Source of the DNA: an uncultured Eubacteriales bacterium | GTDB lineage: Bacteria; Bacillota; Clostridia; TANB77; CAG-508 | NCBI GenBank assembly: GCA_949289635.1 | Contig: CASEOS010000005.1 | Span: 537-64,536 of the forward strand | Direction: 5' to 3' | DNA: 64,000 bases | In this document: in pieces, positions 4,136 to 32,896 of the stretch | How the letters are laid out: each line of letters begins with the position of its first letter | Numbering within the stretch: the first letter of the stretch is position 1 | Notes under the pieces: generated by a model | Database searches by the model: none | Told to the model about the DNA's origin: nothing | Seen by the model: only the letters and a program-made list of their open reading frames with translations | Program-made: the position numbers and the translations under genes

Positions 4136-4211
4136 CGCGGGGTGGAGCAGTTGGCAGCTCGTCGGGCTCATAACCCGAAGGTCGTAAGTTCGAGTCTTAC
4201 CCCCGCAACCA
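4136..4211 (+). tRNA. initiator tRNA-fMet (anticodon CAT)
   Basis: 76-nt cloverleaf; C1:A72 mismatch in acceptor stem, three consecutive G-C pairs at base of anticodon stem, CAT anticodon, encoded CCA. Confidence 0.9.
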
Positions 4212-4427
4212 AACTTATATCACTAGAACTGTAACGGTTTTAGTGATTTTTTATTGATTAAAAATTAGTTGCAATAATGGGTAAAAATCACCCATTTATG
4301 TCAAATTGGGGAGAAATTGGGGATGAACTCCTCAATTTGATACTTATAAATACCATAAATTTCAACAAAATTTATATTTGATAAATATGAGAGTTACAAA
4401 AGTAGTTTATAAGATAATATTGAACTT

Positions 4428-5627
4428 TTAATTTGCTTTGCTTGATATTAACAAATTTTCTAATACATTTCCAGCTTTTTTATCATGTGATTTTAGTGGA
4501 TGTACATAAAAATTATATGTAGTAGTAATTTGTGCATGACCAAGCCTTGCAGATACTGTTGCAACATCTATTTGTTGTCCTATCAAAAGAGTTGCATTAG
4601 TATGTCTTAAACCATGAAAATTAATTACAGGTAGTCCAATAGATTTTACAAAATCAACAAACCATTTACTAATTGTAGATGGATGAATAGGTTTACCATT
4701 ATCTTGAACAAATAACCTATCTGATTCGTACCAAAAATCGCCTACAATTGATTTTTGCTCTTCATACCATAACCTATATTCCTTAAGCAAAGAAACAATA
4801 AAATCAGGGATTGCAACGTCTCTAATAGAGCTTTCTGTTTTTGGTGACTTTGTAAATACCCCTTTAGGAGCTAGATATTGGCTTGATTTGTTAATATTGA
4901 TAATACCATTTTTGAAATCAATGTCACTCCATTCAAGTCCAACAAGTTCTCCAAGTCTTGCACCAGTAAATATATCAAGTAAAATTGCAACACGATATTT
5001 AATGTCTTTACCAGTGAGCTTTTCTAAGTTATCAACTAAAATTTTAGTTTGATCTTCATCATAATGAGGTCTTATTGGTTTTGCTGCTTTAGGTGGCTGA
5101 ACACGTTCTGCAGGATTACTTACAATAAGTTGCCAATATACTGCTTTATGAAGCATTGCTGAAAGTAAACGGTGATGTTCTAATATTGTTTTTGGTGATA
5201 AAGGTTTCCTTGTCTTTTTACCATTGTTGTTTTTCTTTCTAACTAATTGAGTATCAGCCTCAAGCAAATCATAAAATCTCATAATGTCAGTAGGCATTAT
5301 TTTGTTTAATTTATAATGTCCAAAATATGGAGTGATTCTCGTTTCTAACATACGTTTATATCTGTAATATGTAGATGGTGCAAGTTCTTTTAAACCATAA
5401 TCTCTAGTCCATATTTCGACAAATTGTGCAAATGTAGGAACAGTTCCACCGACTACTAGTCCACTTTCAACTTGTGTTAAAAATTTTGCAAGTTCTATTT
5501 GTGCTTCTGATTTGTTTTTACAATGTACTGTTTTTTGATGTCTAATGGGCTTTCCGTCTAGGTCATATCCTTTAAATACAACTAGCCTGTAACTATTTTT
5601 TCCACGCTTTTCAATACTACCAGTCAC
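4428..5627 (-). CDS. int: tyrosine-type site-specific integrase
   Basis: 399 aa; C-terminal catalytic motifs HGLRHT...LGHAQITTTYNFYVH (R-H-R-Y); adjacent to tRNA 3' end. Confidence 0.9.
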   Translation of the reverse strand: MTGSIEKRGKNSYRLVVFKGYDLDGKPIRHQKTVHCKNKSEAQIELAKFLTQVESGLVVGGTVPTFAQFVEIWTRDYGLKELAPSTYYRYKRMLETRITPYFGHYKLNKIMPTDIMRFYDLLEADTQLVRKKNNNGKKTRKPLSPKTILEHHRLLSAMLHKAVYWQLIVSNPAERVQPPKAAKPIRPHYDEDQTKILVDNLEKLTGKDIKYRVAILLDIFTGARLGELVGLEWSDIDFKNGIININKSSQYLAPKGVFTKSPKTESSIRDVAIPDFIVSLLKEYRLWYEEQKSIVGDFWYESDRLFVQDNGKPIHPSTISKWFVDFVKSIGLPVINFHGLRHTNATLLIGQQIDVATVSARLGHAQITTTYNFYVHPLKSHDKKAGNVLENLLISSKAN

Positions 5628-5882
5628 TATCTTTTGCCTCCTTTCTGTTTTGATTTAGTAATTTTTTGAATTACTATGTTTTTATTGTAGCATATTTTTT
5701 TGGGAAATCGAAACCCGACAGGTGGTTATTGAGATAAAAAATATATTACTCATATAGTTAAAAATATTAGCTAAAGATCAAAATATAAAAGGTAAAAAAG
5801 TATTGACTTTAATAAAAATAAGTTTTATAATATAACTTATAAGTTATACGAAGGGAGTAATCTATGTAAGGAGTGCGTTAAG

Positions 5883-6347
5883 ATGATAAAAAAATATAGA
5901 GAAACATTATACACATTAAAAGAAAAATTAAAGGAAGATGAAACAAAAACACTAATAATAGATGAGTGTTTAGAAGAAATGGATGATATTATAGAAAATA
6001 TTAGTGTTTGTAGAAGTTTTGCAGCTACTCTACAGTCAGATATAGCGCGCTACAATGAACATAGAAAGGAGCTATTAAAATCAGGAAAAACTTTTGAATT
6101 TTTAACCTTAAATGACAAACAAAAGAAAGATAAGATAGGTCCAGATAACATATGTAGTTATAAATTTAAGAAAAAAGGGAATAATAATAAAAACATAAGA
6201 TGCATATATATTACAGATGAGGAGAAAGGATGGAATATATTTTTAAAATGTTTCGTTGAAAAAAGTAATAAAGGTAAAAGAGGAGATTATAATGTGGCTA
6301 TAAATGAAGCAATAAAAAGATATAATGATATTTATAGAGAGGATTAG
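5883..6347 (+). CDS. hypothetical protein (possible toxin partner of downstream HTH protein)
   Basis: 154 aa ORF with RBS AAGGAG; stop abuts start of XRE gene. Confidence 0.35.
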   Translation: MIKKYRETLYTLKEKLKEDETKTLIIDECLEEMDDIIENISVCRSFAATLQSDIARYNEHRKELLKSGKTFEFLTLNDKQKKDKIGPDNICSYKFKKKGNNNKNIRCIYITDEEKGWNIFLKCFVEKSNKGKRGDYNVAINEAIKRYNDIYRED

Positions 6348-30745: not shown

Positions 30746-32020
30746 ATGCAAGATTATAAAAACAGAATTGTTGATGATATTTTAGAAAAAAAATTAAAAG
30801 GAAAAGGAGCTGTTTTAATACAAGGACCAAAGTGGTGTGGAAAAACAACAACTGCGGAACAAATTTCTAAAAGTATATTATATATGGCTAAATCTGATGA
30901 AAAAGAACAAAATTTAACAATGGCTGAAATCAATCCAAGTTTACTTTTACAAGGAGAAGTACCAAGATTAATAGATGAATGGCAAATTGCACCAAAATTA
31001 TGGGATGCAATAAGGTATGAAATAGATCATAGAAATGCAGAAGGACAATTTATTTTAACAGGATCTTCTGTTCCAGCGAAAATGGATGATGTAACTCATA
31101 GTGGTACAGGACGATTCGCATGGCTATTAATGAGGCCAATGAGTTTGTACGAGTCAGGTGAATCAACTGGTCAGGTTAGCTTAATAGATTTATTTGATGG
31201 AACAAAAAAGATAGAAGGAATAAATAATATAGACTTAGAAAAAATGGCTTACTTAGTATGTAGAGGTGGATGGCCAAGAGCAATTTTTATGGAAGAAGAA
31301 ATAGCTCTTGAACAAGCATATGATTACTATGATGCTGTTGTTAACAGAGATATTTCAGAAGCAGATGGCATTTCTAGAAACCCAGAAAGAGTAAAAAATC
31401 TTATGAGGTCATATGCGAGAAATATGGGAACTCAAGCATCAAATGATACATTAAGGAGTGATATGATTGCTAATGATTCTACTTCTCTGGATACAGATAC
31501 TGTATTGTCATATGTAAATGCATTAAAAAAGATATTTGTAGTAGAAGAATCACCAGCTTGGAATCCAAATTTAAGAAGTAAAACTGCAATAAGAACATCT
31601 GATACAAGATATTTTATTGATCCATCTATAGCTGTTGCTTCATTAGGAATAGGACCAAAAGATTTAATAAATGATTTGAATACATTTGGATTATTATTTG
31701 AAACATTATGTATAAGAGATTTAAGAGTTTATGCAGAAAGCATAAAAGGAAAAGTTTATCATTACAGAGATGCAAATGATTTAGAATGTGATGCTGTTAT
31801 TCATTTAAGAGATGGTTCTTATGGTTTAATAGAAATAAAATTAGGTGGAGATAGTTTAATAAATGAAGGAGCAGATACATTAAAAAAATTGGAATCAAGA
31901 ATAGATATAACTAAAATGAAAAATCCATCATTTTTACTTGTGCTTACAGCAACAGGAAAATATGCATATAGAAGAGAAGATGGAGTATATGTAGTTCCAA
32001 TTGGATGTTTAAAAAACTAG
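30746..32020 (+). CDS. AAA ATPase with DUF4143 domain
   Basis: Walker A GPKWCGKTT; 424 aa; architecture typical of the AAA+DUF4143 family. Confidence 0.65.
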   Translation: MQDYKNRIVDDILEKKLKGKGAVLIQGPKWCGKTTTAEQISKSILYMAKSDEKEQNLTMAEINPSLLLQGEVPRLIDEWQIAPKLWDAIRYEIDHRNAEGQFILTGSSVPAKMDDVTHSGTGRFAWLLMRPMSLYESGESTGQVSLIDLFDGTKKIEGINNIDLEKMAYLVCRGGWPRAIFMEEEIALEQAYDYYDAVVNRDISEADGISRNPERVKNLMRSYARNMGTQASNDTLRSDMIANDSTSLDTDTVLSYVNALKKIFVVEESPAWNPNLRSKTAIRTSDTRYFIDPSIAVASLGIGPKDLINDLNTFGLLFETLCIRDLRVYAESIKGKVYHYRDANDLECDAVIHLRDGSYGLIEIKLGGDSLINEGADTLKKLESRIDITKMKNPSFLLVLTATGKYAYRREDGVYVVPIGCLKN

Positions 32021-32057
32021 AGAAATAATTAAAATAAAAAAGTGTGAAAAGTAAAAT

Positions 32058-32121
32058 ATATTAAAAATTAAAGGCGAGAATACTCGCCTTTCCTATTTAG
32101 CTATGAATAATTTAACAATAT
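32058..32121. repeat. 65-bp direct repeat, copy B; contains bidirectional terminator hairpin AAGGCGAG-AATA-CTCGCCTT and the 3' end of the gene at 32093-32422
   Basis: Aligns base-for-base with 30371-30435. Confidence 0.7.
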
Positions 32122-32422
32122 CACAAAGACCAGCTTTATAATACTTCTCATTCCAATAAATAGAATAATTTAATAGTTCCTCTCTAAAATCATCAAGAAT
32201 ATCAGATACATAATCAGAATCCTTGTCTGTAATAACATCAAGAATCTTCTCGCAAAAAGTATCATAATTAAGAGCATGTTTTCTATCTTCATCAGTCAAA
32301 TTACTTTCTAATTTTTCAAATCTAAATTCCATCCAATCTTGTAATAATTCATCATTATTATCATCTTTATTTATATTATTAAAACAACAAAAACATTTTT
32401 TATTCATAATCAAAACCTCCAT
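32093..32422 (-). CDS. hypothetical protein
   Basis: 109 aa ORF with RBS GGAGG; acidic, no motif recognised. Confidence 0.4.
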   Translation of the reverse strand: MEVLIMNKKCFCCFNNINKDDNNDELLQDWMEFRFEKLESNLTDEDRKHALNYDTFCEKILDVITDKDSDYVSDILDDFREELLNYSIYWNEKYYKAGLCDIVKLFIAK

Positions 32423-32896
32423 AAATTTATTAAATAATTGGGCTCAAAATGGGCACACAACCCACCAAAAATAACCCAAAATCACATAAATTTACAAAGT
32501 TAAAAAATTGGGCACACCAAATATACCAACAAATACACCTCAAAGTTAGATTTACCAATACTTTATGAGCTTTACTCATAACCCGAAGGTCACAAATCTA
32601 TAACCAAAATAGAATAATAGCTAAAACCATAGAAATTAATTAAAATCAATAAATAAATCATTGAGCAAGAAAAAATATAAGTAAAATCAAGATTATATTC
32701 ACTCAAAAATAAAAAAATTCAAAGTATAATAAAATAAAAATTAATATACCCAATTTACAACAACTAACAAGTTTTGACAAAGAAGAAAAATATAGAGGAA
32801 AAATTAAATAAAAGGAAAGAAAGGAAGTTAAATTTATTAAATACAAAATTAATTTTTGACTTAATCTTAATATCATAGAGTCTTCTTCTATAAATA

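Follow-up and report, generated by a model that had tools for sequence, protein, structure and literature searches.

The 64-kb stretch of DNA analysed here (the window), from contig CASEOS010000005.1 of an uncultured Eubacteriales bacterium, carries an initiator tRNA gene whose central 17 nucleotides (nt) are repeated exactly 28.4 kb downstream. What is the DNA between the two copies, how did it come to lie there, and why is the second copy not followed by the rest of a tRNA gene? A sequence-only reading of the window had proposed an integrative element bounded by the repeat. Here, we describe a comparative analysis of the tRNA gene, the repeat and the intervening genes, within the window and across related strains and species. 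The evidence indicates that the intervening DNA is very probably a 28.4-kb integrative island, inserted by a tyrosine integrase of the heterobivalent type at an anticodon-centred site of the tRNA-fMet gene, and that the occupants of this site are tandem and exchangeable.

The island was analysed inside the window, with tRNA genes called by ARAGORN, which found a single one, tRNA-Met(CAT), at 4136-4211 on the forward strand. Because it has a mismatch at C1:A72 and its anticodon stem is closed by three G:C pairs, both hallmarks of initiators, this tRNA is assigned as tRNA-fMet. The 17-mer CTCATAACCCGAAGGTC corresponds to nt 32-48 of the tRNA. Exact copies lie at 4167-4183 and 32575-32591 on the same strand, 28,408 bp apart as the sequence-only reading had seen, and they are the only two in the window even when up to four mismatches are allowed (chance expectation 0.00 in 100 shuffles). 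Base composition does not discriminate the island (GC 0.20-0.28) from its flanks (0.25-0.31). The second copy might be a chance repeat, or an unrelated tRNA-like fragment in ordinary variable chromosome, given that it is only 17 bp long and is not followed by a tRNA 3' half; against zero expected matches, and with every further copy in more than 100 loci being either an element junction or a tRNA, this explanation is already refuted and retains practically no probability. The two observations that had been named in advance as counter-evidence, a 17-mer scattered through the genome and a constant gene order between its copies, were both looked for: further 17-mers occur only in tRNAs or at element junctions, and the content between the repeats varies among strains.

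The limits of the island are defined by its junctions in other genomes. ENA, Logan, JGI and NCBI assemblies were searched for exact matches to the YraN and Dfx proteins. The exact YraN protein (window 32897-33256) is encoded on ten metagenome contigs (L001-L010), all of which carry the 17-mer about 306 bp beyond yraN and none of which carries the tRNA. From the chromosome side through the 17-mer these contigs are 100% identical to the window, and a GTDB species representative (L026, whose yraN is 99% identical) is 99% identical to it. Beyond the CTCAT end of the 17-mer, at C32, the window, the ten contigs and L026 split into seven unrelated sequences (window and L001; L002, L010 and L026; L003 and L005; L004; L006 and L007; L008; L009). 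Seven element types on a flank of such identity therefore imply fast turnover. A yraN scan of one genome per GTDB species yielded 46 loci, the close ones all from metagenome-assembled genomes of uncultured gut Clostridia or Eubacteriales. Among the 27 close relatives (L026-L052), none of which has a tRNA within 10 kb, 14 carry the core downstream of yraN, with at least five types of arm sequence that all abut it at C32. The 190-bp arm at the right end of the window island (the P arm), together with the adjoining ORF109, is 86-97% identical in six other species, and this homology stops at the core.

The left junction behaves in the same way. Contigs sharing the Dfx/beta-lactamase flank and an identical, complete tRNA diverge immediately after the tRNA CCA, where divergent but homologous left (P') arms begin (L011, L013, L014); a further contig, L110, has the same promoter sequence upstream of the tRNA and yet another element at it, which brings the left junction to at least four element types. 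Element-side sequence at both junctions thus differs from strain to strain and from species to species, the divergence falling exactly at the repeat, as expected of the proposed integrative element. Its extent was borne out, but a start at 4136 includes chromosomal tRNA sequence: the element proper starts within 4167-4183 and ends within 32575-32591, and positions 4136-4166 and the promoter belong to the chromosome. The tRNA gene at the left attachment site (attL) is a chimera of chromosomal nt 1-31, the core (nt 32-48) and nt 49-76 from the element. The terminator hairpin behind it has homologues in the P' arms of other elements (L011, L013, L014, L101, L102, L107).

A further set of contigs joins a P arm, the core, intact nt 49-76, a P' arm and an integrase in the absence of the tRNA 5' half. 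Such a block of nt 32-76 is present in L024, L102, L099, L101, L107, L109, L111 and L112-L116, and its first base is C32 whatever the type of arm. The window-type P arm is joined to the window-type P' arm in L102 (a 37.6-kb contig, 14 kb of it compared) and to another P' arm in L099 and L101, and L024 joins a different P arm to the window P' arm and an identical integrase. Three contigs are chromosomal tandem arrays: in L109 and L111 an L004-like element precedes the one that lies directly at the tRNA in L110, and L107, 45 kb long, contains a complete 9.6-kb relative between two 17-mers, located behind another island (with SIR2). In five IMG/VR viral contigs, too, nt 32-76 occur with no 5' half, and the arm repeats beside them are quite different. 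From their organisation, the junction contigs appear to be either circles carrying the element's own attachment site (attP) or tandem arrays. Several integrase lineages, some related and others not, use the site as a hot spot, where their islands lie in tandem and replace one another. At 133-1059, L109 also encodes a reverse transcriptase (RVT_1) beside a DpnII-type restriction-modification (RM) system and a 1219-aa protein without a domain match.

These arrangements suggest how the island may have been acquired. The attP carries tRNA nt 32-76 and the terminator, so that integration joins the element's 3' part to the chromosomal 5' part, restoring a complete tRNA at attL, and a core copy stays at the right attachment site (attR). 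Strand exchange must occur inside the 15-17-nt identity block (nt 32-46/48), and the analogy of other anticodon-centred sites makes the 7-nt anticodon loop the likely overlap. The excised circle would be replicated by a DnaD-like organiser and a DnaC-like loader encoded by the island. A newcomer would use the rebuilt tRNA or attR as its target, after which the older island would be lost, leaving no empty site at any stage. The occurrence of tandem arrays in both orders suggests exchange through tandem intermediates. Homologous replacement across the flanks is also possible, but it is weighed against by the truncated dprA and split comM found in every conspecific contig.

The missing tRNA 3' half beyond attR had been noted by the sequence-only reading, correctly, since nt 49-76 of the tRNA have no second copy in the window at up to nine mismatches. 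Its suggestion that the right end of the element is degenerate or rearranged proved wrong: the P arm and ORF109 are well conserved, and what has been lost is the chromosomal remnant. In several relatives this remnant is still visible as a decayed 3' half after the core, with 21 of 28 positions retained in L034 and 18 of 28 in L031, L044 and L045 (p<0.0005 each, against the window background). Identity is marginal in L039 and L050, and at the chance level (6-8 of 28) in the window, L026, L027, L028, L030 and L051. The decay substitutions are GC->AT biased (38 vs 6), in line with neutral decay at a genomic GC content of 25%. The core has been spared, with 4 substitutions in 85 pooled positions vs 48 in 140 in the flank, a difference inflated by counting related loci as independent (L031 and L036 share substitutions). 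Among 14 cores only nt 47-48 vary, except in the clearly decaying L036; therefore the protected block is nt 32-46, which may represent either the overlap together with a chromosomal core-type site or the whole stretch as far as the right-hand cleavage point. The attR core of L036 (CTCATAACCAGAAGATT, with three substitutions, beside a window-type arm at 13222-13423) and the junction copy of the tRNA 3' half in L099, which has an acceptor-stem single-nucleotide polymorphism (CGAAACCA), are examples of att sites sliding out of function. In the species of the window, the chromosomal 3' half has either decayed beyond recognition or been deleted. The window's core-to-yraN spacer recurs with 100% identity in the ten exact-yraN contigs and with 99% identity in L026; it shares an ACAAA start with L107 and L050, which is not significant as a sign of common ancestry. 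In other species further accessory genes lie between the tRNA remnant and yraN, so the region beyond attR is itself accessory and defence-rich, and adjacency of the tRNA and yraN is not ancestral. In L044, from another species, two DNA methyltransferases and an AbiEii/AbiEi-like pair occupy 10364-16230, between yraN and the decayed remnant.

The enzyme expected to perform these reactions is encoded where the sequence-only reading had placed it, by a gene 216 bp past the tRNA. The catalytic R...HxxR...H...Y residues are visible in the translation of this 399-aa tyrosine integrase, about 60 aa precede its SAM-like domain, and PHROG families span residues 2-118. The exact protein occurs on seven contigs and in at least four different junction or cargo contexts. 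Both ends of the island contain short repeats, AAATTGGGGA on the left (direct copies at 4303-4323, an inverted copy at 4328-4340) and the motif A(A/T)TGGGC(T/A)C on the right, three times at 32436-32517; AAATTGGGGA and the right-hand AATTGGGC represent the two candidate arm-site variants. The ends are enriched in such sequence, with 4 of the 10 AATTGGGS matches of the window falling in about 300 bp. The P arm repeats are invariant in an alignment of arms from seven species (A1), variants of the P' arm repeat are kept in L011, L013, L014, L099 and L101, and the 21-mer of the P' arm (AAATTGGGGAGAAATTGGGGA) recurs exactly in the P arm of L024, beside the identical integrase. Analogous TTGGG(G)AC repeats adjoin integrases that are 43-45% identical, and each locus encoding a 40-50%-identical integrase (L072, L073, L074, L105) has its own pair of these repeats between tRNA and int. 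Thus the AATTGGG(G/C) repeats that had been noted inside both ends are real, enriched and conserved, and comparison supports them well as candidate arm-type sites; judged by sequence, the repeated (A/T)TTGGG(G/C) motifs on both arms are probably the arm-type sites of the integrase.

The same comparison indicates that target specificity varies among the relatives of the integrase. Those in L072 and L073 lie beside tRNA-fMet, that in L074 adjoins a tRNA-Trp segment lacking the 5' part (anticodon loop to CCA), and that in L105 adjoins a complete tRNA-Arg gene. Further relatives are found in IMG/VR contigs and phages, including the Brevibacillus phages Abouo and Davies and Paenibacillus larvae phages (36-38% identity over the full length); no tRNA-fMet segment is present downstream of the Abouo integrase. 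The catalytic domains of the Tn1549 Int (PDB 6emy) and of PDB 3nkh are detectably related to that of the window integrase. The L105 sequence is GenBank MZ417522.1, a 25-kb UNVERIFIED record named 'Mycolicibacterium phage J1' and labelled Microviridae; it encodes the closest integrase in the phage database (43% identity), beside a tRNA-Arg(TCG) and TTGGGGACATTTT repeats, and looks like mis-assigned element DNA from a low-GC Firmicute.

The mixed pairings of arms raise the question of whether the 28.4 kb is one element or a fusion of at least two former tandem islands whose internal junction has been lost, the integrase and left backbone being of different origin from ORF109 and the right arm. 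Tandem arrays are common at the tRNA-fMet site, the cargo is a mosaic, and the window-type P arm is found with two types of P' arm; moreover, the P arm that L024 joins to the identical integrase is a different one, with the AAATTGGGGAGAAATTGGGGA 21-mer, whereas the window P arm has repeats of the GGGC type. The island, however, contains no internal core, tRNA fragment, arm sequence or second integrase; L102 pairs the window-type P and P' arms, as expected of partners; and both arms share ATTGGG as the core of the arm motif. We consider a fusion unlikely, though it deserves some weight.

Several observations count against a mobile island as described above. About 20 conspecific contigs and 27 related species yielded no empty allele, and the proposed empty site, with the tRNA followed directly by yraN, was thus not borne out. 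No contig in the look-ups joins the Dfx and yraN flanks, most of them breaking off at the island, and the predicted truncated empty junction has no matches in a collection of metagenome contigs that returned six junction contigs. None of the junction contigs can be assigned firmly to a circle as opposed to a tandem array, and no transfer machinery was identified in the island (no relaxase, type IV secretion system or packaging genes). The candidate arm motifs differ at one position between the arms (GGGG vs GGGC), and the sparing of the core is overstated by the pooled counts given above. Because the flank after the core matches the tRNA at the chance level (7 of 28) and the 305-bp spacer has no homologue in sister species, erosion is indistinguishable from deletion in this species. 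Finally, L100, a candidate for a canonical attR with an intact native half followed by chromosome, was withdrawn as firm evidence. It has a GNAT gene 62% identical to that of the window; the first ~116 nt after its tRNA 3' half also occur in L115, ahead of another P' arm and integrase. L100 may be a tandem junction with a degraded element.

Could the island, then, be a fixed, immobile remnant, with the 17-mer as a fossil and the differences among strains produced only by homologous recombination across the flanks? The absence of an empty site and of identified transfer genes fits this view, as do the predicted truncation of the tRNA after nt 48 upon precise excision and a chromosomal B' side that beyond nt 46-48 is unrelated to the tRNA. 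A remnant would not be expected to keep the integrase, the Xis-like gene, both arms and a perfect core all intact, nor to encode an integrase found unchanged in at least four contexts. The seven element types share a 100%-identical flank (99% in L026), their breakpoints fall exactly at the core and not at variable positions in the flanks, and the disrupted-looking dprA and comM argue against exchange driven by transformation. A fixed remnant is therefore quite improbable, and we retain the reading of a mobile island at an exchangeable site.

If the island is mobile, its loss would have a consequence for the host. Precise excision would leave nt 1-48 fused to unrelated DNA, and therefore a dead tRNA gene; the sequences show that a functional tRNA gene at this site always depends on a 3' half supplied by an island. 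We tentatively raise the possibility, which we think less likely to hold than to fail, that the tRNA-fMet of this lineage is obligately chimeric, the host keeping the promoter and nt 1-48 and the T-arm, the 3' strand of the acceptor stem and the terminator existing only on islands. Such an 'addictive landing pad' would mean that loss of the island kills or cripples the tRNA gene, and that exchange can proceed only by tandem integration and deletion of the older element; it would explain why the site is permanently occupied across species and also why its defence cargo turns over rapidly. How heavily the loss of this tRNA copy weighs depends on the other tRNA-fMet genes in the genome. Should the copy matter to the cell, an essential component of translation would be tied to mobile DNA, an unreported way of stabilising islands.

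The approximately 30 open reading frames (ORFs) of the island were annotated with Pfam, PADLOC, NCBIfam and PHROGs (Table 1). Its backbone consists of the integrase, a DUF6076 protein, a Xis-like helix-turn-helix (HTH) protein, a phage-type replication module, a ribbon-helix-helix (RHH) protein and ORF109 at the right end. The combination of integrase, DUF6076 protein, Xis-like HTH protein and replisome organiser had not been described as a backbone before, and it carries swappable anti-phage cargo. The DUF6076 protein is kept in relatives L021, L022, L102, L107 and L109. Its AlphaFold2 (AF2) model (mean predicted local distance difference test, pLDDT, 88.8; predicted template modelling score, pTM, 0.73) displays four conserved cysteines (C244, C247, C262 and C272) and has no match to a PDB fold below E=1 in Foldseek, making this fold orphan a candidate for a new function. 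The HTH_17 protein is, by sequence, a probable excisionase. ORF109, which has no family match in any of the four profile collections, is conserved as DNA together with the P arm in L027, L036, L044, L045, L050, L100 and L102. The sequence-only reading had called the DNA between the repeats accessory, with RM, anti-phage, replication and mobilization genes. The first three were found; what there is of mobilization is the 97-aa NikA/MobC-like RHH protein, which scores under the NCBIfam cutoff for MobA, and no relaxase was detected by Pfam, NCBIfam or PHROGs. TTGGGAA/TTCCCAA palindromes upstream of the RHH gene (12365-12387 and 12541-12556) are candidate operators, a candidate origin or a candidate origin of transfer (oriT).

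The element is not a prophage, as no virion structural, terminase or lysis genes were found among the ORFs with Pfam and PHROGs. Its layout recalls phage satellites, namely phage-inducible chromosomal islands (PICIs) and their Staphylococcus aureus representatives (SaPIs), and the integrative and mobilizable elements (IMEs) of Firmicutes: all share the order integrase, (regulator), xis-like gene and replication genes, and structural and conjugation genes are lacking here, where an RHH protein of the NikA/MobC type is present. It differs from a PICI or IME in having no packaging module, no relaxase that could be found and a DUF6076 backbone gene, and in a size that ranges from 9.6 to 28 kb according to cargo. 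The DUF6076 gene occupies the place where the master repressor of a satellite would be, divergent from the xis-like gene. One may ask whether the island is a PICI-like satellite that depends on a helper phage for its induction and packaging, and not a mobilizable or simply integrative island. The left half, with its integrase, divergent DUF6076 gene, Xis-like HTH gene and phage-type replication genes, is what such a satellite would have, L107 provides a minimal relative of 9.6 kb, and integrase relatives occur in phages and IMG/VR contigs. Neither Pfam nor PHROGs, however, revealed terS, cpm, ppi or another gene for packaging or for redirecting or remodelling capsids; at 28.4 kb the island is twice the usual PICI size; the DUF6076 protein has neither an HTH nor a fold match; and no helper phage is known. 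We judge a satellite to be improbable, and an integrative island remains the preferred description.

The cargo is a battery of anti-phage systems and differs among related elements. The island shares 4.2-14.5 kb with L021 and L022, which have the same integrase and diverge in hsdM/hsdS; only 26.7-30.4 kb and the right end are shared with L027, L044 and L045, from other species, the AbiL region being common to L027 and L044; and 14.5-26.7 kb is unique. A 418-aa ORF (15509-16765, + strand) lies between hsdS and hsdR, the position held by PrrC in the prr locus. It has no match in Pfam, PADLOC, NCBIfam, PHROGs or the PDB sequences, and none of its more than 187 homologues has a Pfam domain; a 47%-identical homologue is found outside an RM operon, among ResIII/UvrD helicases, DUF7695 and Fic genes. 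In the AF2 model (pLDDT 84.9) the C-terminal part resembles the PD-(D/E)xK domain of FokI, BspD6I and Cdn1, with a conserved D...ExK motif, and the N-domain is weakly similar to GATase1 (amidotransferase). From this model we propose the protein as a candidate for an unclassified defence nuclease, and its gene, encoding a nuclease domain within a type I RM operon, as a candidate for a new function. The trio at 5883-7287 is arranged like a toxin-antitoxin-chaperone (TAC) system, the PD-T4-9_C match belonging to its SecB-like protein.

Table 1. Coordinates of the island, its attachment sites and its genes in the window
Feature	Position	Strand	Basis
tRNA promoter TTGACA-17-TATAAT, chromosomal	4087..4115	+	12/12 consensus match
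tRNA-fMet (CAT), chimeric attL gene	4136..4211	+	ARAGORN; flank divergence after CCA; junction contigs
att core, attL copy (anticodon loop, 3' anticodon stem, variable loop)	4167..4183	+	exact repeat
Element-borne terminator hairpin for the rebuilt tRNA	4219..4247	+	terminator scan
P' arm repeats AAATTGGGGA x2 (11-bp spacing) and inverted copy	4303..4340	+	candidate arm-type integrase sites
Tyrosine integrase, 399 aa	4428..5627	-	Pfam Phage_integrase 2.5e-27 and Phage_int_SAM_3; phrog_1
Trio: 154-aa ORF, HTH 158 aa, SecB-like 148 aa	5883..7287	+	Pfam HTH_3, SecB; PADLOC PD-T4-9_C 1e-5
GmrSD-family type IV restriction / HEC-05	7324..9048	-	GmrSD_N 3e-31; HEC-05 3e-143
DUF6076 backbone protein, candidate regulator	9170..10228	-	Pfam; divergent from xis-rep operon
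Iteron-like repeats ATATATAGGCGAAA, ~58-bp spacing	10276..10590	.	DUF6076/xis-like divergent intergenic; candidate operators or origin
HTH_17/Tn916-Xis-like protein, 67 aa	10781..10984	+	HTH_17 5.9e-12; Tn916-Xis 2e-4; phrog_66 excisionase
Replication module: replisome organiser N-domain protein and DnaC/DnaI-like helicase loader	10999..12295	+	profile searches
RHH NikA/MobC-like protein, 97 aa	12584..12877	+	Pfam NikA-like 4e-20, MobC 3e-11
Type I RM operon hsdM-hsdS-(418-aa ORF)-hsdR	12883..20116	+	profile searches
PDC-S57 (DUF4357), DUF7695, 648-aa AAA_22 ATPase (PDC-S49-like)	20135..23053	+	profile searches
Hydrolase, GDSL lipase, SDR, DUF4160/DhiT-like protein	23410..26543	+	profile searches; cargo
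AbiL: AbiLi ATPase and AbiLii/RloB	26801..28701	+	PADLOC 1e-98 and 5.5e-22
HTH regulator and PDC-M50 A/B (ThsB-like TIR pair)	28831..30217	+	profile searches
PDC-S01 (AAA_14 and DUF4143 ATPase)	30746..32020	+	profile searches
ORF109 (109 aa), right-end backbone gene	32093..32422	-	DNA conserved together with P arm
P arm repeats AATTGGGCT, AAATGGGCAC, AATTGGGCAC	32436..32517	+	candidate arm-type sites
att core, attR copy	32575..32591	+	exact repeat; strains diverge exactly here
Chromosomal spacer, core to yraN, without recognisable tRNA 3' half	32592..32896	.	7/28 identity = chance

The island is very probably an anticodon-centred tRNA-integrating genomic island of the ordinary kind; it has most features of that class, lacking in this species only the displaced native fragment. 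In the anticodon-centred (class A) arrangement, attP contains the tRNA sequence from the anticodon loop onwards, and integration rebuilds the gene (Williams 2002; Hudson et al. 2015, PMC4383910), and the Islander collection contains 2083 such islands, 125 tandem arrays and 148 'damaged' islands (PMC4383910). As in class A islands of the Islander and TIGER collections, a tyrosine integrase lies beside an intact tRNA gene, a direct repeat of the tRNA lies at the distal end, and tandem arrays form at one tRNA gene. Unlike them, the island has a displaced fragment of 17 nt, in place of the canonical 45 nt, with no recognisable T-arm or acceptor part; its target is the initiator tRNA, and no empty form of the site was seen. 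It would probably escape a finder that works from fragments, such as Islander. The locus suggests that a displaced tRNA fragment may decay completely and leave the recombination core intact, and finders that rely on the fragment are likely to overlook such sites. The host's own second tRNA half has become unrecognisable, and many islands swap at one 17-base site.

Tying a tRNA to mobile DNA has a counterpart in the tRNA-dependent lysogeny of mycobacteriophages, in which integration destroys a tRNA and a separate phage tRNA gene compensates (Guerrero-Bustamante & Hatfull 2024, PMC10865867). In both systems the common core is short and lies within a tRNA gene, and the host depends for a tRNA function on sequence from a mobile element. 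The logic here is the opposite, however: integration rebuilds the tRNA, excision would destroy it, and the element carries no complete tRNA. The tRNA at attL is complete, and the window contains no other tRNA gene.

Defence-island hot spots are conserved sites at which different strains carry different islands, mostly with anti-phage cargo. The tRNA-fMet site resembles them in holding different islands with RM, abortive infection (Abi), Toll/interleukin-1 receptor (TIR) and GmrSD systems; it differs in that it is defined to the base pair by an att core within a tRNA gene and is shared by several lineages of integrase and arm. The locus thus represents a defence-island hot spot resolved to the base pair in an uncultured, 25%-GC lineage of gut Clostridia.

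Two observations concern the chromosome downstream of the island. An inverted-repeat structure of 68 nt, resembling a miniature inverted-repeat transposable element (MITE), lies at 45858-46006, with a half copy 4.6 kb away at 50513-50564, and contains TGGGACAATTGGGGACGTTTCT. The TTGGGAC/TTGGGGAC motif in these copies resembles the arm repeats beside the related integrases of L074 and L105, and the copies account for 3 of the 6 AATTGGGS matches outside the island ends. A 407-aa ORF next to the TTGGGGAC repeat (50569-51792), considered as a second integrase, was rejected, as it is not an integrase. Additionally, the dprA/comM region (33238-35841, - strand) contains a dprA of only 237 aa, which covers the C-terminal part of the DNA_processg_A profile, and a comM split into two ORFs (35841-35179 and 35159-34308). 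Both genes are in the same state in all conspecific contigs L001-L010, and the competence genes of the species look disrupted.

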